A stretch of DNA of 64,000 nt, from assembly GCA_963706595.1 (NCBI GenBank), contig OY970166.1:3584001-3648000 (forward strand), read 5' to 3'. The stretch's first letter is position 1, and every line of letters starts with the position of its first letter. Origin of the DNA: an uncultured cyanobacterium. GTDB lineage: Bacteria; Cyanobacteriota; Cyanobacteriia; Cyanobacteriales; Nostocaceae. A model generated the notes under the pieces. It did not search any database. It was not told where the DNA came from and saw only the letters and a list, made by a program, of their open reading frames with translations. A program made the translations under genes and the position numbers. Of the stretch, positions 5,516 through 62,565 are shown piece after piece.

Positions 5516-8500
5516 CTACTGACAAATTCCCCTCTCATCCTCACTCAAATTCGAGTTGTGCTGCAAATAATCATCCAACCAAGCGCAACCCCGCACCAGC
5601 AATTCATCTAAACTCTCCACAGGCCACAACCGCGCTGTCCGGTCATCGGATGCGGTGGCGATGGTTTTGCCGTCCGGGCTGAAACTCACACTATTGATTT
5701 CGCCTTGATGCCCTTTGAATTCTTGTAACAGTTGCCCGTTTAGAGTCCACAACCGCGCTGTCCGGTCAGAGGATGCGGTGGCGATGGTTTTGCCGTCCGG
5801 GCTGAAACTCACACTATAGACTATGCCCTGATGCCCTTTGAATTCTTGTAACAGTTGCCCGTCTAGAGTCCACAACCGCGCTGTCCGGTCAGAGGATGCG
5901 GTGGCGATGGTTTTGCCGTCCGGGCTGAAACTCACACTCCAGACCCAACCCTGATGCCCTTTGAATTCTTGTAACAGTTGCCCGTCTAGAGTCCACAACC
6001 ACGCTGTCTGGTCAGAGGATGCGGTGGCGATGGTTTTGCCGTCCGGGCTGAAACTCACACTAATGATTTCGCCCTGATGCCCTTTGAATTCTTGTAACAG
6101 TTGCCCGTCTAGAGTCCACAACCGCGCTGTCTGGTCAGAGGATGCGGTGGCGATGGTTTTGCCGTCCGGGCTGAAACTCACACTCCAGACCCAGCCCTGA
6201 TGCCCTTTGAATTCTTGTAACAGTTGCCCGTCTAGAGTCCACAACCGCGCTGTCTGGTCAGAGGATGCGGTGGCGATGGTTTTGCCGTCCGGGCTGAAAC
6301 TCACACTCCAGACCCAGCCCTGATGCCCTTTGAATTCTTGTAACAGTTGCCCGTCTAGAGTCCACAACCGCGCTGTCTGGTCAAAGGATGCGGTGGCGAT
6401 GGTTTTGCCGTCCGGGCTGAAACTCACACTATTGATTTCGCCTTGATGCCCTTTGAATTCTTGTAACAGTTGCCCGTTTAGAGTCCACAACCGCGCTGTC
6501 CGGTCAGAGGATGCGGTGGCGATGGTTTTGCCGTCCGGGCTGAAACTCACACTATTGATTTCGCCTTGATGCCCTTTGAATTCTTGTAACAGTTGCCCGT
6601 TTAGAGTCCACAACCGCGCTGTCCGGTCAGAGGATGCGGTGGCGATGGTTTTGCCGTCCGGGCTGAAACTCACACTATTGATTTCGCCTTGATGCCCTTT
6701 GAATTCTTGTAACAGTTGCCCGTTTAGAGTCCACAACCGCGCTGTCCGGTCAGAGGATGCGGTGGCGATGGTTTTGCCGTCCGGGCTGAAACTCACACTA
6801 ATGATTTCGCCCTGATGCCCTTTCAATTCTTGTAACAGTTGCCCGTCTAGAGTCCACAACCGCGCTGTCCCGTCAGAGGATGCGGTGGCGATGGTTTTGC
6901 CGTCCGGGCTGAAACTCACACTAATGATTTCGCCCTGATGCCCTTTCAATTCTTGTAACAGTTGCCCGTCTAGAGTCCACAACCGCGCTGTCCGGTCATC
7001 GGATGCGGTGGCGATGGTTTTGCCGTCCGGGCTGAAACTCACACTCCTGACTATGCCCTGATGCCCTTTGAATTCTTGTAACATTTGCCCGTCTAGAGTC
7101 CACAACCGCGCTGTCCCGTCAGAGGATGCGGTGGCGATGGTTTTGCCGTCCGGGCTGAAACTCACACTCCTGACTATGCCCTGATGCCCTTTGAATTCTT
7201 GTAACAGTTGCCCGTTTAGAGTCCACAACCGCGCTGTCCCGTCAGAGGATGCGGTGGCGATGGTTTTGCCGTCCGGGCTGAAACTCACACTAAAGACCCT
7301 GCCCTGATGCCCATGAAATTGGTTACGTTCTTTAATATCACTCAGAATAGTATGCAACGCATAAATCGGGCTAATAGCTGGGTATTCATCCAGAGGGCGA
7401 TTATCTTTAACTAAAGTTTTCAACTCTTTACCAGTTTTGACTGCTGTTACTAGCCCTTCTAATGGGGTAAATTCAAACTGTCTAATCGCATTAACTCCCG
7501 CCCGTTCTAATTCTGTTCCCTTTTGCGCTTCTTGTTGGGCTGCTTGCGCTAATTGTGCAGCTTGCTTTGCTGTTTGTTGGGCTTCTTGCGCCTGTTTCAG
7601 AGTAATTTCTGCCTGTGCAACTTGAGACTCCGCTTGCTGTTGTTGTTGCTGTGCTTGTTGCGCTTTCTCATCAGCCGTTCTCACTCTCTCCGTAGCCGTT
7701 TTAATTCTGGCTTCCGCTTCGGCATTTTTCTTTTCTAATGCTGCGGCTTGCTGATTTACCTTCTCTAAGTCTGTTTTAGCAGCAGCTAGGTTTTGGGTAG
7801 CTTTGATATTTTCTTTTTGTGCGTCCTTAAACTTTGCTTCTGCGTCCTTACTTTTAATTTCTAAATCTCGCGCTGTTCTTTGTAATTCTGCCTGTTTTCT
7901 TTCCGTCTCTTGCAAATTTTGAGTTGTTCGCCGATAATCACCTTCAGTTTTGGTTAATTTTCGTTCTGCTTGTTGTTGATTTTCATTAGCTTTACTGGCT
8001 GTACCAACTTGAATCACTGCATAAACAGAAGCCATCCCTGAAACTATTAATAAAAACACTGATAAACGAGAACTTATCTTAAACCGTTTCTGCCCTTCCC
8101 TAATCTTTGCTTCAGCTTCCTGGTTAGCAGCAGCTAATATTTTCTTAGCTTCTTGTTCCTGTTTTAACTGCTCTTCAGCTAGAGCTAATTTAGCTAATAA
8201 TTCATTATCCTGTTGTTGTCGCACAAAAGAAACCAAATAATCATGCACCAACTGATACCTATCAGCCGGGGATTCTGGTAATAGCAACACCAAACCAGAT
8301 TGCACAAAAATATCTAATATCAAATCTAATCTATCAGTTTCTGCTGCTAACTTTGCTGTCAACTCAGCCCTAGTTTTCAAAGGACGAGTGCCATTTTCAT
8401 CTGTGAGTAAATATAAAATCAATCTCGCAGCGCGTTCATTTTCTGCCCCACAATCTTTAATAACCGATTCTAAAAATCCTTCAACCAGATTTTCTTTAGT

Positions 8501-27410: not shown

Positions 27411-27427
27411 GGAAATAGATGTTCCTT

Positions 27428-27500
27428 ATTGCGGACATCATTTACTTTATGGGTAATTATGTATGTCCGCAAACTACAATGAGTTTTAACTTTAGCTCCA
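27428..27500 (+). pseudogene. Short duplicated remnant of the DUF2085 gene (direct repeat of 31277-31321)
   Basis: 40/45 nt identity; encodes IADIIYFMGNYVCPQ versus IADIIYFMGNHVCPQ; weaker frameshifted similarity continues to about 27500. Confidence 0.8.
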
Positions 27501-27582
27501 AACTGTTCCTATGTTTTATGACCAGACGAAACCACAATAAGCTTATATGATTTAGTTCCTGAAATGAGTAAATCTAAATTAT

Positions 27583-29709
27583 ATGGTACAAGAAGATTCC
27601 TTAAAGTTTAGTATTCAAGAAATTGGTGCAACTTCTCAGCATTTAAAAACTGTCATTAACTTAGGTAATGCTAATTCAGAAACCCTTGGCTTTTTACCCT
27701 ATGGAGCTTTTGAAAGACTAGCGGACGAAGGTCGTATTATTGGTTTTATTGTTCCAGAATTAGGTTGTGTGGGATATCTGCTTTATGGTATTAGTCGTCG
27801 TAATTACAGAGTAAAACTTACCCATCTTTGTGTAGATAAAAATTGGCAAAAAAGAGGAATAGCCAAAAAATTACTCCAGTATTTAAAAAATAAAACTCAA
27901 CATTTATACGGTATTCTTTTATCATGCCGTCGTGATTATAATTTAGATGGAATGTGGGCAGCACTTGGTTTTGTAGCTCCTCATGAAAGACCAGGAAAAA
28001 GCAAAGAAGGCAGTATTTTAACTGAGTGGTGGTTAGATTATGGTCATCATAGTTTACTCACTAATCTTGCCTATCAAGAAACTGAATCTAGATTATGTGT
28101 TGCTATTGATGCTAATATTTTCTTTGATTTAGTAGATGATGAAAAGTTTGATGAGGAAGGAAAAGAATCTAAAGTTCTAATTTCTGATTGGCTAGATTCA
28201 GAAATAAAATTATGTTTAACTGACGAAATTTTAAATGAAATTAACAGAAATCCAGACAGTAGAAAAAGAGAAAAATTACGTACAGCAAGAAGTCATTTTA
28301 CAAACCTTCCTTCCACCCAAAAAGAATTTGATAAACTATGCCAAACTATACGTAGATTTTTTCCTGAAAAGATGACTCCTAGTGATGAATCAGATTTACG
28401 TCAAATCGCTAGAGTTATTAGCTCTCAAATTAATACTCCTTACTTTGTTACTAGAGATAAACGTTTATTAGGTATTGAAGAAGAGATTTATCAAGAATTT
28501 AATTTGACCATTATTCATCCCATTGATTTAATTATTAAATTAGATCAATTACGTAGAGAAAATGAATATCAACCAGAGCTTTTAGGTGGAACTAATATCA
28601 AAGAAAAGCGCATTCAGAGTAAAGAGATAGATTCAATAATTGACCTCTTTTTATGTTATTCTCAGGGTGAAAAAAAACCAGACTTTAGAAAAAATATTCG
28701 CAGTTTAGTTTCAAATACTAAACAAATTAAAGGTTTTACAGTTAGTCAAAATGAAGAATTTATAGCTCTGATAATCTATGATAGATCAGAAGATAGAGAG
28801 TTAAATATTCCGGTTTTTCGATTCAGAAATACTAAAATTACTCCTACTCTTTTACGGAGGTGTATTTTTGAATGTTTCTCAACTGCTGCTAGTGAAAATA
28901 GAGAATTCACCAGAATTACTGAAATATACTTGGATGATACAACCGTTAAAGCACTGTCTGAAGATGGTTTTTTAAAGACTAAATCTGGATGGTTAAGAGC
29001 TAATTTAGCTATTTCAGAAAATGCAGTAGATATTTCTTCGTATATTACTAACTTGTGTAAAAAATCACCTAAAGATTATGACAAATATCTTCCATTTGCA
29101 GATATTTTATTAAATCAAGATTTACTTCAAAAACCAGAAATCATGGCAGATATTGAGAGAATGCTTTATCCTGCCAAAATTACTGATGCTGAAATTCCTA
29201 CTTATATTATTCCTATTAAATCACGTTGGGCTAAAGAATTATTTGATAAAGAATTAGCAGAAGAAGGAATATGGAGAGCTAAAGAACAATTAGCACTGAG
29301 ACGTGAGGTTGTTTACTACTCTTCAAAGCGAAAAATGAAATATCCAGGAAGAATTTTATGGTATGTTACTCCATCTCCTGACGATAAAAATAGTTCTGCT
29401 ATTCTAGGAGCTATTAGAGCTTGTTCTAGACTAGATGAAGTAACAATTGGTAAACCCAAAGATTTATATAAAAAATTTAGAAGATTAGGCATTTACAGTT
29501 TTCAAGATGTTTTAAAAGCTGCTAATAACGATTTAGACAAGGAAATCAAAGCTGTTAAATTTAGTGATACTGAGTTATTTGAAAATCCTATAAAATTTGC
29601 AGAAATAAAAATAATACTAAATCGATCTATTCAACTTCAAAGTTCTATAGAAATTTCTCCAGAAGAATTTAAAATGTTATATAATAGAGGAAATTCAATG
29701 TCTATATAA
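27583..29709 (+). CDS. GNAT acetyltransferase - PIN nuclease - PUA/EVE-like multidomain protein
   Basis: GNAT motif A LCVDKNWQKRGIAKKLL; PIN acidic residues in IDANIFFDL, EILNE, DESD and FVTRDKRL; C-terminal IIPIK..WAKELF...ILWYV region is PUA-like (inferred). Confidence 0.82.
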   Translation: MVQEDSLKFSIQEIGATSQHLKTVINLGNANSETLGFLPYGAFERLADEGRIIGFIVPELGCVGYLLYGISRRNYRVKLTHLCVDKNWQKRGIAKKLLQYLKNKTQHLYGILLSCRRDYNLDGMWAALGFVAPHERPGKSKEGSILTEWWLDYGHHSLLTNLAYQETESRLCVAIDANIFFDLVDDEKFDEEGKESKVLISDWLDSEIKLCLTDEILNEINRNPDSRKREKLRTARSHFTNLPSTQKEFDKLCQTIRRFFPEKMTPSDESDLRQIARVISSQINTPYFVTRDKRLLGIEEEIYQEFNLTIIHPIDLIIKLDQLRRENEYQPELLGGTNIKEKRIQSKEIDSIIDLFLCYSQGEKKPDFRKNIRSLVSNTKQIKGFTVSQNEEFIALIIYDRSEDRELNIPVFRFRNTKITPTLLRRCIFECFSTAASENREFTRITEIYLDDTTVKALSEDGFLKTKSGWLRANLAISENAVDISSYITNLCKKSPKDYDKYLPFADILLNQDLLQKPEIMADIERMLYPAKITDAEIPTYIIPIKSRWAKELFDKELAEEGIWRAKEQLALRREVVYYSSKRKMKYPGRILWYVTPSPDDKNSSAILGAIRACSRLDEVTIGKPKDLYKKFRRLGIYSFQDVLKAANNDLDKEIKAVKFSDTELFENPIKFAEIKIILNRSIQLQSSIEISPEEFKMLYNRGNSMSI

Positions 29710-29716
29710 AATAAAA

Positions 29717-30220
29717 ATGAGTCTCATGTCTCCAAATGTACTTTTAATATCTATTCACTATGAATACGCTAATATGATATTTGAGGGTAATAAACAAGTT
29801 GAGTTTAGGCGTGTTAGACCTCGACATCTAAGTGAAGGTGATCTAATTCTTGTTTATGCAACATCTCCTGAAAAAGCATTGTTGGGAGTGCTTGAAGTAG
29901 AAGAAGTTGTGGAAATGTCTCCTAATAAGCTTTGGAATATTGTTAAAGATAAAGCTGGTATTAACCAAGAAACCTTTCAAAAATACTACAAAAATTCACA
30001 AATTGCTTTTGCTATTTTCTTTAAAAACCCGTTCAGTTTTGATTCACCAATTACAATTGAAAAACTAAGAGAAGAGTGGAAAGATTTTCGACCACCACAG
30101 TGTTATCATTATTTAAAAGATAGAGAGATAAATTTTATCAAATCAATGACAAAATATGATATTCTAGCATTATCTAATAAGTTTAGAGGTTATCAAACTG
30201 AACTATTGCCTCAAGTTTAA
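29717..30220 (+). CDS. ASCH domain protein
   Basis: LISI...YANMIFEGNKQVEFRR (GxKxxExR), GDLILVYATSP, PPQ; starts 7 bp after the upstream stop. Confidence 0.88.
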   Translation: MSLMSPNVLLISIHYEYANMIFEGNKQVEFRRVRPRHLSEGDLILVYATSPEKALLGVLEVEEVVEMSPNKLWNIVKDKAGINQETFQKYYKNSQIAFAIFFKNPFSFDSPITIEKLREEWKDFRPPQCYHYLKDREINFIKSMTKYDILALSNKFRGYQTELLPQV

Positions 30221-30308
30221 AAGATAAATATATATATTTTTATATATTACTTTTTGTTTTAGTGTAAATCTATTATACTAATATGTAAACTCGTATCCCT
30301 TAAATAGT

Positions 30309-31112
30309 ATGAGTGAAACCCTGGCTGATATTGCTATACCACCGCAGTTTCCTGATCATACTCAACTACCAGAGTCTGATGGTACGTTTGTGTTAGCGAA
30401 GCGTACCGTAGGTCAGAACTTTCAAGAACATCCCCAAAGCATAATTATCACAGACTCAATAATTCAAACTTTACAAAAGTTACATCCCGATGGACAATTT
30501 TGTATAGGTCAAGATTGTGGGATTTATTGGCGCGAAACAGAACCACCAGAAAAAGGTACAGTAGCACCAGATTGGTTTTATGTCCCTGATGTCGCACCAA
30601 GATTAGAAGGTAAAATTCGCCGTTCTTATGTATTATGGCGGGAATATATTCCCCCATTAATTGCGATAGAATTAGCCAGTGGTAATGGTGATGAAGAACG
30701 AGACAAAACACCTTTACCTTTAGCTGGTAATCGTGAAGGTGCAAAACCTGGGAAATTTTGGGTATACGAAAGAGTGATCCGCATTCCCTACTATGCTATT
30801 TATGAAATTAATAATGAGAAATTAGAAGTTTATCACTTGGTAGATTTTTCCTACCAAAAAATGCAGCCCAACGAACGTGGACATTACCCAATTCCCCCTT
30901 TAGGTGTAGAATTAGGACTATGGCAAGGAAGTTATTTAAATAATCCTGAGCAACTTTGGCTGCGCTGGTGGGATTTAGATGGTAATTTATTATTAGTCGG
31001 TAAAGAAGAAGCCCAATTACAAAGACTCAGGGCTGAACAAGCAGAACACAAAGCAGCACAATTAGCAGCACGATTGCGAGAAATGGGTATTGATCCAGAT
31101 ACAATAGATTAA
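30309..31112 (+). CDS. Uma2 family (DUF820) endonuclease-fold protein
   Basis: PDHTQLPESDG, APDWFYVP, PLIAIELAS, GKFWVYE...IPYY, AARLREMGIDP tail. Confidence 0.92.
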   Translation: MSETLADIAIPPQFPDHTQLPESDGTFVLAKRTVGQNFQEHPQSIIITDSIIQTLQKLHPDGQFCIGQDCGIYWRETEPPEKGTVAPDWFYVPDVAPRLEGKIRRSYVLWREYIPPLIAIELASGNGDEERDKTPLPLAGNREGAKPGKFWVYERVIRIPYYAIYEINNEKLEVYHLVDFSYQKMQPNERGHYPIPPLGVELGLWQGSYLNNPEQLWLRWWDLDGNLLLVGKEEAQLQRLRAEQAEHKAAQLAARLREMGIDPDTID

Positions 31113-31138
31113 GAAATTTTTCTCGCAAAGTAAGAAAT

Positions 31139-31657
31139 ATGCAAAGGGTTATTTTGTCAAGGGAGTTACAGGTTAATTGGGTGAGTTTTATTGCTGATTT
31201 CCTGTTGGTGGGGATGGTTTTTGGTCCTCCTATTGCTCCTTTTTTGGCTGCGTCTGATGTGTCTTTGCTGAGTAGGATTGCGGACATTATTTATTTCATG
31301 GGTAATCATGTCTGTCCGCAACCTGATATGGGTTTGGATTTAGCACCCCCGTTTATTATGGCTGTTTGTATGCGTTGCTATGGTACTGTTTCGGGGTTGC
31401 TATTTACTCGGTTTTTATATGGGGTAACTGGTGGTAAGGGTTTTTACTGGTTAAGTCAATATGGTTGGAATGGTGCGGCTTTGGCTAGTGTGTTGATGAT
31501 GGCTTATCCTTTGGAATTGGCTGCTCAGGTTTTTGGTTTGTGGGATTTTAATAATTATTTGGTGACACCTTTTGGGTTAATTACGGGTTTGGCTTGGGGT
31601 TTATTTACTATGCCGATTTTTCATCAGTCGCAGCATAATCATTTTTATAAAATTTAA
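31139..31657 (+). CDS. DUF2085-like membrane protein
   Basis: HVCPQ and VCMRCYG motifs with multiple TM helices. Confidence 0.8.
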   Translation: MQRVILSRELQVNWVSFIADFLLVGMVFGPPIAPFLAASDVSLLSRIADIIYFMGNHVCPQPDMGLDLAPPFIMAVCMRCYGTVSGLLFTRFLYGVTGGKGFYWLSQYGWNGAALASVLMMAYPLELAAQVFGLWDFNNYLVTPFGLITGLAWGLFTMPIFHQSQHNHFYKI

Positions 31658-31958
31658 TATGAATAATCAAACGCCGATAAACGCGGATAAATCCAGATTT
31701 TTAATTGTTTGGCTTGGTTTTCATATCATCTATTCTTAGCCTAACTGTATTTTCCTAAACTTTGGCTTTAATAGTAATCTTACGCAAAAAACTCTCATGA
31801 CTCTGCGTCCTCTGTGCCTCTGTGGTTAATTAACTCCTGACTTAAGCGTAATTACTGATACAGATTATCCTCTTCTCTGGGTAAACTAAAAGAGAAACTA
31901 ATACATTTGTATTATCAGGCTTGTAGCTGACCACAGTTAACTCAGAGGGGTGTACCAG

Positions 31959-33806
31959 ATGATTAATACCAGTTACGACTTTGACCAAGCTATCCTACCT
32001 ACAGGTTCTTCATTAAAAACAAATATTTTGCTGCGTTTTCGGGCTGATATTGCAGAATCTCCCCGACGTAACCTGAATCTTTCTTTGGTAATTGACCGTT
32101 CCGGCTCTATGGCGGGTGGTGCTTTGCATCACGCACTTAAAGCGGCTGAGTCTGTGGTGGATCAACTGGAATCAAATGATATTCTCTCAGTGGTGGTTTA
32201 CGATGATGAAGTGAATACCGTTATTTCACCTCAACCGGTAACTGACAAGTCAGAACTGAAAAAATCCATTCGCAAAGTCAGAGCCGGCGGTATTACTAAC
32301 TTATCAGGGGGTTGGCTCAAAGGTTGCGAATATGTCAAAGCGCAACTTGATTCCCAAAAAATCAACCGTGTGCTTTTACTTACCGATGGTCACGCCAATA
32401 TGGGCATTATAGACCCCAAAATACTGACGGCGACATCAGCAAAAAAAGCTGAGGAAGGTATCACTACAACTACATTAGGTTTTGCTCAAGGTTTCAATGA
32501 AGATTTGTTAATTGGTATGGCGAGAGCAGCCAATGGTAATTTCTATTTTATTCAAAGCATTGACGATGCAACGGAAGTTTTTAGCATTGAGTTAGACAGT
32601 CTCAGAGCCGTGGTAGGTCAAAATCTGACAGTAACTCTGGAATTAGCTGATGGTGTTAGCCTCGTAGATACTTTGAGTTTATCTACAGTTAGTCACAACG
32701 AAGCTGGTCAAGCTGTGATTAGTTTGGGCGAACTTTACGAAGGGGAAGATAAACTTTTGGGGTTGAGTCTGGATATCTCCTCAGCACCAGTTGGTAATTT
32801 ACCTGTAATGAAGCTGCATTACAGCGCTGATGTTGTCCAAGATAACGTGATTCAAAGTGTGTCAGGTACAGCCGATGTCTTCGCTAAAGTTGGTACTATT
32901 GAGGAAGCTGCGGCTGCGTCTTCTAGTGGTGTTATCCTGGAACTGAGTCGCCTGACTATTGCTAAAGCTAAAGAAATTGCCCTTGATTTAGCTGAACATG
33001 GCAGACATGAAGAAGCTGAACAAACTCTGCGGGTATTAGTGAAAGACCTTCAGGATAAAGGTTTAAATGAGAATTTTGAAATTGCGGAAGAGATAGATCA
33101 GCTAGAGTATTTCGCTGGTAGAATTGCTCAAAAAGCTTTGGGTAATGCTGGACGTAAAGAAATGCGAGACCAAAGTTACCAGACAATGACGCGCAATCGC
33201 AGCGATTTAGCGGGACGTGGTGTGACTGCTGGCGATGAAGTCTATGCAATTCCGGTGGTGAATGAAGTCGGTTCTGGGGTGGAACTGCAATGTATTCGGG
33301 AAGGTGGTAAATTGCGGGTTAAAGTTGTCTCTGAGGGTTACGATACTAGTAAAAATGTCCAGTTTCCGCGAGCAATACGGGCTGAAGGCGCACGTTATAT
33401 TGTAGAAGGTTTGGAACTTTCTAGCGATCGCACTTTCTACCGTGTCCAGGGAGACATTACTCGTTTTGCTCAAGCAGGTGTCGCAGATACTTTTGTTGAC
33501 CGTAGAACTACGCAACGAGTTAGCACAGGTAAAGCTTCCAAAGGTCCCGCTAGTGCTGCTGACTTGGAAACAACTGACACTATAGACAATCAGGTTTTAG
33601 TGCAGTGTGTCAAAGATGGTGGTAAACTCAGAGCCAGGGTGGTTTCTGATGGTTATGAACCGGATTGGAATATGCGCTTTCCTCGTTCGGTACGGGAAGA
33701 AGGAATGCTTTACGTTGTTGATGAAGTGAAGACAGCGCCTGATGGTAAGTCTTATATTGCTTGTGGGGATATTAAGCGGTTTGTCCAACCTACGATTAAT
33801 AATTAA
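31959..33806 (+). CDS. vWA (MIDAS) domain protein with tandem-duplicated C-terminal domain
   Basis: DRSGS, GITNL and LLTDG MIDAS residues; two copies of C..EGGKLR..VVS.GY....N..FPR..R.EG..Y.V. ATG 31959 or GTG 31950. Confidence 0.9.
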   Translation: MINTSYDFDQAILPTGSSLKTNILLRFRADIAESPRRNLNLSLVIDRSGSMAGGALHHALKAAESVVDQLESNDILSVVVYDDEVNTVISPQPVTDKSELKKSIRKVRAGGITNLSGGWLKGCEYVKAQLDSQKINRVLLLTDGHANMGIIDPKILTATSAKKAEEGITTTTLGFAQGFNEDLLIGMARAANGNFYFIQSIDDATEVFSIELDSLRAVVGQNLTVTLELADGVSLVDTLSLSTVSHNEAGQAVISLGELYEGEDKLLGLSLDISSAPVGNLPVMKLHYSADVVQDNVIQSVSGTADVFAKVGTIEEAAAASSSGVILELSRLTIAKAKEIALDLAEHGRHEEAEQTLRVLVKDLQDKGLNENFEIAEEIDQLEYFAGRIAQKALGNAGRKEMRDQSYQTMTRNRSDLAGRGVTAGDEVYAIPVVNEVGSGVELQCIREGGKLRVKVVSEGYDTSKNVQFPRAIRAEGARYIVEGLELSSDRTFYRVQGDITRFAQAGVADTFVDRRTTQRVSTGKASKGPASAADLETTDTIDNQVLVQCVKDGGKLRARVVSDGYEPDWNMRFPRSVREEGMLYVVDEVKTAPDGKSYIACGDIKRFVQPTINN

Positions 33807-33875
33807 AAATTAAAGCGTTGCATAAATGCGAGATGATTTTATGCAATGCTTAATTACGAATTACGAATTACGAAT

Positions 33876-33981
33876 TATAGCGGTTATCAGTTAAGTGAGA
33901 TACAAGAACCCCACCCCCAACCCCCTCCCCGCAAGCGAGGAGGAGGCTATGATGTACTTCATTGAAGTGGATACCGCTATA
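33876..33981. mobile_element. MITE-like element inserted in an (AATTACG)n array
   Basis: TATAGCGGT/ACCGCTATA ends with TA duplication; heptamer array resumes in phase on both sides; partial second copy at 44171-44245. Confidence 0.72.
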
Positions 33982-33995
33982 CGAATTACGAATTA

Positions 33996-34694
33996 TTAGA
34001 CTTCAATTAATGGATGATAGTCGTCTGGGTTAGTGAAACCTGCTATCCAGGCGGCTGCTTGATGACAATTTCTGATATGAGGGGGAACGCGTAAAATATG
34101 AATGTGTCCTGTGGATGGACAGGTGACTTTTAAAACGATGAATGGTTCGTCATCTTCAAAGGGAATGTAAATCAGTTGACGTTCTCCACCTGCATCTTGA
34201 TCGCGATCGCGCACCAAACCCCCCACTTGCTGCAATAATGTTTCATATCCCAAACGCTCAATCAAGACACGGCGTAACTCAACATTCTCAATATTAAGAA
34301 TATCTTGTCCTGTAATCGAGTCTGATGCAAAAGCAATGTCATCTGTTACCCGGACTCCTCGCCAGCGTAGAATAAAACCATGTCCCGCAGGTAAACTGGT
34401 AATTCCACTTCCAGCTAATTCAATTCCATGAGTGACGTGTAAACCTGGGGGAAGGGTGGTTAAGTTTATACAGTCGCTAATATCGAGACTTTCACAAGTG
34501 AGATTTTCCGGTAAATTGTAAATATCCGATGCGCTGCTTAAATTCAAATTACCCAAGACACGCATCCCATCCCAGGCGCGATGTGCCAAAATGAGTTTTC
34601 TAGCAGTTTCAGGCGATACAGGCTCATGTCTGGCTTGGGAGGGCTGTTTAACGGGCTTTTTGGGGATACGCCCCTTTGACATCATATTCAGCAT
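33996..34694 (-). CDS. DUF6745-like domain protein with short LRR-like N-terminal region
   Basis: LP.NL...LDIS.C.NL..LP.GL repeats; NVELRRVLIERLGY, VTCPSTG..HILRVPP, AAAWIAG. Confidence 0.78.
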   Translation of the reverse strand: MLNMMSKGRIPKKPVKQPSQARHEPVSPETARKLILAHRAWDGMRVLGNLNLSSASDIYNLPENLTCESLDISDCINLTTLPPGLHVTHGIELAGSGITSLPAGHGFILRWRGVRVTDDIAFASDSITGQDILNIENVELRRVLIERLGYETLLQQVGGLVRDRDQDAGGERQLIYIPFEDDEPFIVLKVTCPSTGHIHILRVPPHIRNCHQAAAWIAGFTNPDDYHPLIEV

Positions 34695-34993
34695 TAGTCC
34701 TCTACCTCTACATAAGCATCAGGACGGTATTCCCGTTGTTTCCAAACTCGATAAAACCCTTGGGGTAATTCAATGGCGCGATGTTCTTCATGTATTAAGG
34801 TTGCACTGGATGCTTTGACTTCTAAAAAAAGTTCACTACCATCTACCCACAATTGTACTGCTTGGGTTTGCTGAATGCGGTGGCTATGTCCGGTAACTTC
34901 ACCGTGTGCGAGAGTCGCACCTGTACGCTTCTGCACACCTGCGGGTAAAGCCGGAATTTTGCTGATGAGAACGTCGCCATGTCTGTAAAGCAT
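34694..34993 (-). CDS. Small His-rich protein, partner of the DUF6745-like gene
   Basis: YRHGDV, LAHGEVTGHSH, HEEH..I.LP.G.Y.V..QREY; its stop overlaps the next ORF start. Confidence 0.8.
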   Translation of the reverse strand: MLYRHGDVLISKIPALPAGVQKRTGATLAHGEVTGHSHRIQQTQAVQLWVDGSELFLEVKASSATLIHEEHRAIELPQGFYRVWKQREYRPDAYVEVED

Positions 34994-35115: not shown

Positions 35116-35856
35116 ATGAATAATCCAGATTTTTTTAATGATCAACTTCTCGAAAAATTCATTGAAACATTTTATGGCTACGGTAATTTGCAAGGAAAGT
35201 ATTGGTTTATCGGAATGGAAGAATCAGGAGGAGACTTTAAAGAGATTGAAAACAGAATCAATATATGGAGTCAGAGAGGACAAAAGGAAATAGAAGATGT
35301 TGCAGAATATCATATAGCTCTCGGATATGGGGAAAGTTTTCAACCAGGTGCAAAATTACAACCAACTTGGAAGAAATTAATTCGCATTGTATTAAGTGCC
35401 AAAAAAAATGAAAATATTAATACAGAAGATGTTCGTACATATCAAATAAATGAATTAGGTAGAATAGGTAAAGAAACTTGTTTATTAGAATTACTGCCTT
35501 TACCTTCACCCTCTCTCAATCATTAGATATATAAGGATCATACTCAGCTAAGTTATTTAACCGACAGAAATCAGTATGAAAAGCATTGTCTAGAAAACCG
35601 CATCAATACAATTAGTGAGAAAATCAAAGAACATCAACCTAAAGCAGTTGTGTTTTATGGAACTGGATATGAATATTTTTGGAGAAAAATCACACAACAA
35701 ATAACAAACGTTGAATTTTTACTAACTTCAGAAGGTTTCTTAACCTGTAGAAACAGTCAAACCATATTTGTGATATCTCAACATCCTGTAGCTTGGGGTT
35801 CAACAAATGAATACTTCCATAAAATTGGTAAATTTCTTGCTACTAACCCAGCCTAA
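35116..35856 (+). pseudogene. UDG-fold-like protein gene interrupted by an in-frame TAG at 35524-35526
   Basis: The two track ORFs share one frame and 35527-35649 is open; probable TGG>TAG. WFIGMEE and SQHP resemble UDG-superfamily motifs. Confidence 0.72.
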
Positions 35857-60760: not shown

Positions 60761-62565
60761 AGCTTTCCCTCTTTTTTAATTTGGAGTCCTACATCTAGAA
60801 TCAATTGTGATTGATGTTTTTATCTAAAATCTAAAATCATGGGACCTAGCTTTGACGGTGGTAGTATCATCCCTTGTTTGGAATTTTACTGCCAATTTAA
60901 CTGGCTTTAGCAGAAAAATTTGTGCTTATTAAAAGCTAATCACAGACATTTGTGCTGATATGTAAAAAGCATTAACAAGAATTACAAGTTGGTTGGGAAA
61001 ATAGGGGTGAATTTAACTAGTCAGCATTTTTATCTGCCTAATATATATCTAGTTAAACTAGCCCCTAGAGATAAACCGTGTTGCAGAAGCAGCTTCTTTG
61101 TTAAGCGTACTCAATTTTTCACCACAGATATATGATCAATTTTTGGATAGACTTATCTCTTCTTTCGCTCTTCCCATTTATTAATTCTCCTTAACTGTCA
61201 TACTGGCTGGCAGGATTATGCTTTAGTAATAAATTATACTTTAGTAAATTTGGTAAAATAAAAAGACAGATTTTAGGATTTTAATATATATATTGCATCT
61301 CTTTTCTAATAACAGGTAAGATTTTTGTGTAATAGCAAGTATTATATGTTGCGATCTGCCACTGTATTAAATCTCAGGGGAGTTTAATTGATTCTTATGG
61401 TAATGAGAGAAAAATTCATTTGCTTCAAAACGTTTTTTTATACATGTACTTATAGTCAATATAGTCATTTTTAAACAACAAATCCACAATATTTAGACTG
61501 ACTATGAACCTTGTAAATCTTAATGGACAAAGCTAAACAATAACAATATTTCAATAATTGATGATTATAGTCTTTAACTAAGATTATTTTCTATTTGTAT
61601 AAATAAATACTTACAAATTTAGGAATAAAAAAAATTACTGATTTAAAATCTAGTCAATGGATTACTGTTAACAAAACAAATACATCAAGCTATTAACAGC
61701 TTATAAATTTTCTGCTACATAAAATTCTTGCCATAAAAATTTTGTAATTATCAATACATTCATTCTTTACATTTTCTATTACTTTTGAGAGATGTTTTAG
61801 TAACACGTATATAAATGTAAAAAAAAAGGTATATCTCATGACAGATGACTTAGTACAATATTCTATAGTTAGATGTCTGAAGGAGTAAAATGATTAAAAC
61901 TCAATTTATAATCAGTAAATTGTTTATTTAGTCGCAATATGATATGACAAAATTATCTAAATTAAATTAGACATAATACATTTGTTTGAAATCATGTTTT
62001 AGCAAAAATATATTGTTCTAACTGTAGTATCGTCTTAACCAAACTGTTTTTAACCTAAATTAAACTTAGCACTTAGTGATATATAGGATTTTAAACTATA
62101 AGCCAAAGTGCTATTTGGTATATATATATTACCTACAAAATTCTTGGCTTCACCATCAAAAAAATGTTATTTATTTATGTAAACAAGTTTAATATTACTA
62201 ATTTAGATTGATAAAATCAGGTGAGGAATAGCAATTAACCTGAGAATATTCATAATTAAACTCATTTTTTGTAAAAGTGCCGGGTAATCAGCACTTTTAA
62301 GAAATTATGATGATCAAAACTTCGGTGACTCGATTCCCAATTGATAAAAAATAGTGAGTAGGGATATGAATGCTGGCAATTATAAATTAGCGAAATCTGA
62401 TGATTCATTAAAAGTACAGCCAGAAGCGAAGCTGAAATTTGCTCATTTACTGGTCAAATATTTTTGCTGGAAATTCCCTTTATCTACATAACTATAGATG
62501 ATTAACGCCAGGAGTTTGACTGTAATTTTGGGTGTGAGAGAAGTGATGAAGTAGTAGAGGGGAGC

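Follow-up and report, generated by a model that had tools for sequence, protein, structure and literature searches.

The 64-kb window analysed here (64,000 nucleotides of contig OY970166.1, from an uncultured cyanobacterium of the Nostocaceae) contains, behind the arginine dihydrolase gene agrE/argZ, a two-gene cassette consisting of a 708-residue multidomain protein (open reading frame A, ORF A) and, 7 bp further on the same strand, an ASCH-domain protein (ORF B). We tentatively regard this cassette as a mobile conflict module, probably defensive, that would operate through a reversible acetyl mark on nucleic acid and an interchangeable nuclease; this reading is quite possible, yet somewhat short of probable. 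It is hinted at by the exchange, among the relatives of ORF A, of the PIN nuclease domain for a neighbouring type IV restriction enzyme (McrBC or Mrr), which separates a fixed core from its effector. The features of the cassette, all on the + strand, are as follows.

27583-29709, + strand: ORF A, 708 amino acids (aa), domain order GNAT1-PIN-GNAT2-helical linker-PUA/ASCH-like, PIN_17 family (ORF call, Pfam, AlphaFold2 and fold search).
27604..28041, + strand: GNAT1, aa 8-153, predicted active acetyltransferase, with H81, C83, motif A (Q89-G92-A94), C115, R116, D118 and W125.
28093..28554, + strand: PIN domain, aa 171-324, VapC-type, acidic tetrad D176, E215, D271 and D292 intact here.
28597..29001, + strand: GNAT2, aa 339-473, with a GNAT fold and the invariant R413 but lacking motif A.
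29191..29697, + strand: PUA/ASCH-like C-terminal domain, aa 537-705, conserved aromatics W549, Y578, Y579, W593 and Y594, predicted reader.
29717-30220, + strand: ORF B, 167-aa ASCH protein (Pfam ASCH, PDC-M11B profile, ZmASCH similarity).

The original prediction, made from the letters of the DNA, had described the long ORF, the short spacing, the ASCH partner and a set of motifs, and ORF calls and Pfam confirmed all of them. In ORF A the motifs are QKRGIA (Q89-A94), DAN (D176), E215, D271 and TRD (D292); GNAT scores over the curated Pfam cut-off and PIN_3 under it (E 0.0016). An AlphaFold2 model of ORF A was built from 111 homologues (mean predicted local distance difference test score, pLDDT, 88.6), and residues 160-480 were modelled separately (pLDDT 92.4). 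In the fold search, GNAT1 (residues 5-158) matches Ard1 (4pv6; Z 18.5, root-mean-square deviation (rmsd) 3.3, 147 residues aligned), PIN (171-314) matches VapC11 (6a7v; Z 12.7, rmsd 3.2, 133 aligned), and the C-terminal domain (537-705) matches ZmASCH (5guq; Z 15.7, rmsd 2.5, 140 aligned). Profile comparison of GNAT1 with GNAT2 gave a weak match (E 0.012) and therefore the fold search was used here as well, residues 338-475 matching 3d8p (Z 14.3, rmsd 2.4, 137 aligned). Thus the GNAT, PIN and PUA/ASCH-like folds originally listed are borne out, whereas the second GNAT at 338-475 had been overlooked.

Conservation was counted over 163 full-length ORF A members (660-780 aa, leaving aside split and partial genes). 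The GNAT1 residues are kept almost throughout (H81 in 161, C83 in 160, C115 in 163, R116 in 160, D118 in 161 and W125 in 163). On the other hand, motif A is found in GNAT2 of none of the 163 members, and this domain is probably non-catalytic. The ASCH catalytic motif GxKxx[ET]xR is likewise absent from the C-terminal PUA of all 163. The window copy of PIN displays both the fold and the four acidic residues of VapC-type PIN RNases. Measured against two Anabaena orthologues, the ratio of nonsynonymous to synonymous substitution rates (dN/dS) is 0.11 for GNAT1, the lowest in ORF A, 0.18-0.20 for PIN, 0.37 for GNAT2, 0.15-0.19 for PUA and 0.13-0.17 for ORF B; every domain of both proteins is under purifying selection. 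No stand-alone GNAT1 family was found among 69 short candidates, 9 matches looking like fragments. The prediction of an ORF A-ORF B complex scored 0.00 and was counted neither way.

ORF B scores over the curated Pfam cut-off for ASCH and matches the PADLOC profile PDC-M11B (E 3e-34), and the solved structure nearest to it is that of ZmASCH (E 1e-15). Its GNKQVEFRR stretch (G24-R32) provides K26, E29 and R31 of the GxKxxExR motif, which together with Y47 are the residues of ASCH proteins that erase N4-acetylcytidine (ac4C) by means of a Lys/Glu dyad; the K..E.R pattern is kept in 129 of 130 ORF B-type proteins. According to a 2026 preprint, Lys and Glu are essential for removal of tRNA ac4C by ASCH proteins, and all 19 ASCH proteins assayed there, ZmASCH among them, were active in vitro (10.64898/2026.02.27.708502). 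ORF B is therefore a predicted acetyl eraser, RNase activity being another possibility. The writer-like GNAT and the eraser-like ASCH of the original prediction both prove intact at the level of conserved motifs. The start that is conserved in ORF B is probably Met4 (96% of 77 homologues).

A profile search returned 1,456 representatives at E <= 1e-30, shorter and partial matches included, and loci were recovered from cyanobacteria, Planctomycetota, Verrucomicrobiota, Bacillota, Myxococcota, Nitrospirota, Bacteroidota, Actinomycetota, Chloroflexota and one archaeon. Linkage of A to ASCH, which the original prediction had made a test of its proposal, is near-obligate: an ASCH gene directly follows A in 80/80 mostly cyanobacterial loci, in 72/75 metagenome loci and in 101 of the 109 distant loci having room downstream (30 loci had been removed from this set beforehand as duplicates or cyanobacterial). 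Pfam detects a divergent ASCH in two of the eight distant loci scored as lacking one, and an insertion sequence interrupts a third. The A gene is split in 7 of the first 80 loci. No match was found among 50,697 phage records; IMG/VR yielded one locus, from one alignment, whose ORF layout is the same as that of a bacterial locus (L221). As side observations, two Chloroflexota members (L129:8170-11094 and L156:8362-11094) carry N-terminal extensions of 200-270 aa, and in Hymenobacter (L183:5324-11530) a canonical PIN-GNAT-PUA + ASCH pair (PDC-M11) stands head to head with a four-domain pair.

The nuclease is the part of the system that varies. Downstream of ASCH, McrB was found in 50 and McrC in 47 of the first 80 loci, McrBC lying <=300 bp from ASCH in 47 of 49 measurable loci with its motifs intact (McrC [DE]xKYK 43/43; McrB Walker A 48/48). 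A midpoint-rooted FastTree tree of 94 proteins, in which a quarter of the distant members were included, divides the cyanobacterial members into the clade of the window copy, with 21 proteins (support 0.995) and none with McrBC, and a sister clade (n=45, support 0.99), which has McrB downstream in 45/45, counting two truncated cases. The strict PIN tetrad is present in 18/21 members of the window clade and 91/97 of the remaining members, but in 3/45 of the McrBC clade, where the substitutions are numerous and varied. The McrBC clade nevertheless retains the GNAT1 core in 44-45 of 45 and the ASCH dyad in 44/44. A set of 80 metagenome loci overlaps with these clades and so does not form an independent sample; in it, PIN is broken in 27/27 readable McrB-adjacent cases and intact in 19/20 without McrB or Mrr within reach; in 18 readable edge cases it is intact in 14 and broken in 4. 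Where a full Mrr gene is adjacent, the PIN tetrad departs from the strict pattern in 3/4 genome loci and in the single metagenome locus (1/1). These results support PIN as an effector, as originally proposed, but as a replaceable one. In addition, GNAT1 persists after PIN has decayed, which makes it improbable that GNAT1 acts on PIN alone. We also considered that the window might hold a truncated four-gene system; this was rejected, because the window clade and the McrBC clade are sisters and the outgroups to both lack McrBC.

Some further observations concern the linked restriction genes. The N-terminal domain of the linked McrB subfamily (230 aa; L023:10596-11300 and homologues) matches no named family, in Pfam or otherwise, above threshold; it occurs in 10/61 genomes, beside A in 9 of these, and is similar to domains that are fused to other McrB, NucS, NOV_C and NmeDI_C nucleases, which makes it a candidate new specificity domain. 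The genome of the window (G000) contains at C1:989554-991566 (L093 ~5550-7570, minus strand) a McrBC of this subfamily that is frameshifted and truncated at the N-terminus, with an iron ABC transporter on one side and unrelated genes on the other; the McrB N-terminal domain is absent from it, and no remnant of A or B was found in the 16 kb searched around it. A McrC match without internal stops is present in two relatives of the genus (G003 and G006). On a plasmid of Calothrix PCC 6303 (L095:5838-13542), the four-gene version is preceded by genes for a cytosine methyltransferase and an Eco29kI-family endonuclease, all in the same orientation. Finally, one HNH_5 family (~265 aa) recurs close to the pair in 10 distant loci (including L100, L104, L137, L153, L165 and L178), with PIN intact in 9/9 checked.

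Several lines of evidence agree with the horizontal acquisition suggested by the original prediction. The G+C content of the cassette is 30.4%, whereas the genome has 41.3% and agrE 46.0%, the latter contrast being as first described; just 0.14% of 11,135 genome windows of equal size are as low, and G+C at third codon positions (GC3) of ORF A is 0.15. The closest named records are from Nodularia (99% identity). Compared with an Anabaena locus (L003), the synonymous divergence (dS) of the cassette is 0.22 (A) and 0.11 (B) and its non-coding spacer is 95% identical, whereas dS of agrE is 1.19, with 81% identity. Because the cassette is so much closer than agrE, these values indicate a recent transfer between Nodularia and Anabaena into the same slot. 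This slot is variable in the genus: a homologue is found in 3/10 other genomes of the genus (16/61 genomes searched, counting partial and weak matches), the slot is empty in 5/10 relatives (G002, G003, G004, G008 and G010), for instance in G003, where agrE and DUF2085 are joined across 58 bp, and other inserts occupy it in G001, G006 and G009. Two features of the slot are concerned.

27428..27499, + strand: 72 bp copied from within the DUF2085 gene (31277-31347) and since decayed, 81% identity, E 3e-11.
30309..31112, + strand: Uma2-family gene (Pfam Uma2), a variable passenger of the same slot and not a conserved part of the system.

The 72-bp stretch upstream of A is the sole significant other match in the genome and is common to the Anabaena copies; it is probably an insertion scar. 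The Uma2 gene adjoins the A/B pair in 4/80 loci, and in G001 and G009 it is in the slot but the pair is missing. The agrE-DUF2085 slot (window 27411-31138; L242, L243) was seen empty, with Uma2 only, or with a gene for a Cys-rich zinc-ribbon membrane protein, the latter broken by a transposase in G006. Neither terminal repeats nor an integrase were found at the cassette. The HIP1-free stretch to which the original prediction had pointed is real, as the octamer GCGATCGC has no site between 27302 and 33424; nevertheless, it is weak evidence for transfer, because 16% of 2.6-kb genome windows lack HIP1, 53 of 4,323 HIP1 gaps reach this length, and the gap spans native genes too.

The simplest reading of these patterns is a set of fixed modules (an intact GNAT, a stripped PUA and a catalytic ASCH) with an exchangeable nuclease, which would correspond to writer, reader, eraser and effector. 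GNAT1, which has the fold and the motif, would move an acetyl group from acetyl-CoA to a base, most likely at cytosine N4, this position being favoured because dyad-bearing ASCH proteins remove tRNA ac4C (10.64898/2026.02.27.708502). By homology to the assayed enzymes, ORF B would hydrolyse the mark and protect the cell as an antitoxin, while the catalytically stripped PUA of A may bind marked or modified bases and position the effector, with GNAT2 as a scaffold. If marks were written faster than they are erased, for instance during infection, the nuclease would cut. Since PIN is intact in the window copy, RNA would be the likely target here and growth arrest the likely output; McrBC in the sister clade and Mrr in a few lineages point to DNA. 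The substrate, the trigger and a role in phage defence are what we infer from these patterns. In a more specific and unlikely version, the system would tag and cut, inverting restriction-modification: the host would write N4-acetylcytosine, ASCH would clear self, and the plugged-in nuclease would destroy the marked nucleic acid.

A number of observations weigh against the acetyl-mark module. The top fold matches of GNAT1 are protein N-terminal acetyltransferases (Ard1, RimI), and strict motif A ([RQ]xxGx[GA]) is present in GNAT1 of 105/163 members only. The McrBC swap is confined to one clade and therefore represents one evolutionary event; as L010 and L012 are sisters, Mrr adds two further events at most. 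In addition, PIN is intact beside a full Mrr (L065) and beside an Mrr catalytic domain (L189), and the McrC subfamily occurs away from the pair in 6/15 other genomes. Cyanobacterial copies adjoin mostly housekeeping genes, not defence islands. As for the eraser, ZmASCH does not hydrolyse free ac4C (10.64898/2026.02.27.708502) and was first reported as a single-stranded RNA nuclease (PMC5615036). Finally, the passages of 10.1101/2024.01.29.577857 that deal with the PDC candidates contain no phage data.

Part of this evidence would fit a system in which the two PUA/ASCH domains read phage-modified bases and GNAT1 signals by acetylating a protein, either a target in the host or the partner nuclease, PIN or McrBC being the effector, with no acetylation of nucleic acid. 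The likeness of GNAT1 to protein acetyltransferases speaks for such a sensor and switch, and Mrr is modification-dependent. McrBC is modification-dependent too, and Bell, Wolf and Koonin argue in their 2020 text that the operon ASCH binds modified DNA and note ASCH-HsdS fusions (PMC7641849). What it leaves unexplained is why B has kept its catalytic amidohydrolase dyad in 129/130 proteins while the PUA of A has lost it in 163/163, and why an acetyl writer is paired with an acetyl eraser fold; we consider it somewhat unlikely. Alternatively, GNAT1 itself could be the toxin, acetylating aminoacyl-tRNA like TacT or AtaT, with B as antitoxin and PIN and McrBC as redundant back-up effectors sharing the operon. 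GNAT1 is indeed conserved regardless of the nuclease, and the two-gene, toxin-antitoxin-like layout and patchy spread would suit it. However, TacT/AtaT systems typically have an adjacent ribbon-helix-helix (RHH)/DUF1778 antitoxin gene, which is absent from this operon, ASCH being the only conserved partner, and we know of no ASCH enzyme that hydrolyses N-acetyl-aminoacyl-tRNA. ASCH enzymes act instead on N4-acyl-cytidine (10.64898/2026.02.27.708502), although aminoacyl-tRNA targets have been proposed for GNAT-EVE proteins (PMC7641849). There is no GNAT toxin among the 50 fold matches listed, an absence that does not exclude likeness. This branch of the original prediction thus gained no positive support, and we judge it decidedly unlikely.

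No more probable is a selfish addiction or stress RNA-turnover module without an anti-phage role, the nuclease swap then being operon shuffling. The housekeeping neighbours in cyanobacteria and the split A genes are compatible with it, and no functional test was found in the literature. On the other hand, PIN decays where a type IV restriction enzyme adjoins, and an addiction module would resist loss, yet the slot is empty in half of the genus relatives. Moreover, in loci outside cyanobacteria a defence-type gene is the nearest neighbour in 29/99 upstream and 19/104 downstream positions and a mobile-element-type gene in 11/99 and 7/104, as sorted by the author and without a background control; the defence-type neighbours include HNH, type IIG and type III restriction-modification, DUF499, AbiE, PemK and Schlafen helicase genes. 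The defence-island setting originally envisaged is therefore seen outside cyanobacteria, but not at the window locus.

If the tag-and-cut version were true, it would mean acetylation of a DNA base in bacteria and a type IV enzyme reading a mark written by the host, and ASCH deacetylases would gain their first biological role. The swap also offers matched test systems, namely the two-gene copy of the window and a four-gene relative, in which the mechanism of the family is directly testable, and a programmable pair of cytosine-acetyl writer and eraser would be a useful tool.

Elsewhere at the locus, promoter and terminator scans remained at chance level (15 found against 14.7 expected, and 1 against 0.6, respectively), and no RNA holder is listed for the 64-kb stretch. 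A vWA protein whose C-terminal part carries two similar repeats (window 31950-34993) faces a DUF6745 gene and a small partner on the opposite strand. Two short AT-rich ORFs of 136 and 68 aa in one direction (window 35116-35856) resemble one split gene; the 136-aa ORF has no Pfam match, and we take the GMEESGG motif of these ORFs to be reminiscent of uracil-DNA glycosylase-like proteins. The region 60761-62565 (~1.8 kb) has no ORF that reaches 90 aa, and its G+C falls to 26% at 61001-62000.

Operons of GNAT-PIN-PUA/ASCH type have been on record since 2013 with no mechanism assigned, and their GNAT was considered inactive in one survey. The idea that the four-domain form was uncatalogued was rejected in view of the supplement of Matelska et al. 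2017, where PIN_17 is described (PMC5499597). In the text of Supplementary Fig. S6B the order is GNAT, PIN_17, GNAT, PUA, PUA, with PIN boundaries of ~160-335, and the organisms listed include Prevotella sp. oral taxon 299 and Ca. Nitrospira defluvii (PMC5499597); full-length tblastn matches to ORF A were found in both (32%, E 4e-88 in the former). PIN_17, a fusion of a VapC-like PIN with an acetyltransferase, shares the domain order of ORF A and likewise lies upstream of an ASCH (COG4933) gene. The cassette is a member of PIN_17, membership being matched by organism and PIN boundaries and not by accession; this is a catalogued family without an explained mechanism, to which we add the intact first GNAT, the eraser-type ASCH, the nuclease swap and the recent Nodularia-Anabaena transfer. 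According to the main text of Matelska et al., the PIN-associated GNAT is without motif A and probably lacks acetyltransferase activity (PMC5499597), a verdict that fits GNAT2 but not GNAT1. The PIN_17 table mentions a helix-turn-helix (HTH), which ORF B lacks, and the searchable part of the supplement text has no mention of McrB (PMC5499597). A term search of a McrBC census returned neither GNAT nor ASCH (PMC11090510). The literature, covered in part, yielded no experiments on the family, nor any account of the link to McrBC or of the decay of PIN, and a prior description is possible.

The (PIN-)GNAT-EVE + ASCH operons, called uncharacterised by Bell, Wolf and Koonin, who credit Iyer et al. 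2013 (PMC7641849), correspond to PDC-M11, one of the PDC systems described as predicted candidates (10.1101/2024.01.29.577857), and likewise combine PIN, a degenerate GNAT, a PUA-like domain and an ASCH partner. Unlike ORF A, the PDC-M11A profiles (357-501 positions) have no N-terminal GNAT; ORF A scores 55 bits against them, from residue 174 and over 212 of 486 positions at best, whereas a canonical member scores 713 bits (PADLOC thresholds were not applied). The AAA_17 ATPase and HTH of those operons are absent at the window locus, as are McrBC and Mrr, which follow or flank the pair in relatives. ORF B shares the GxKxxExR motif and Y47 with ZmASCH, TthASCH and YqfB-type amidohydrolases, S128 of ZmASCH corresponding to C129 of ORF B; these enzymes were assayed alone, and for ORF B the activity is a prediction. 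As for the writer, Mom of phage Mu is a GNAT-fold enzyme that acylates a DNA base (PMC13219725). It uses Gly-tRNA and protects phage DNA (PMC13219725), and its likeness to GNAT1 is one of fold class.

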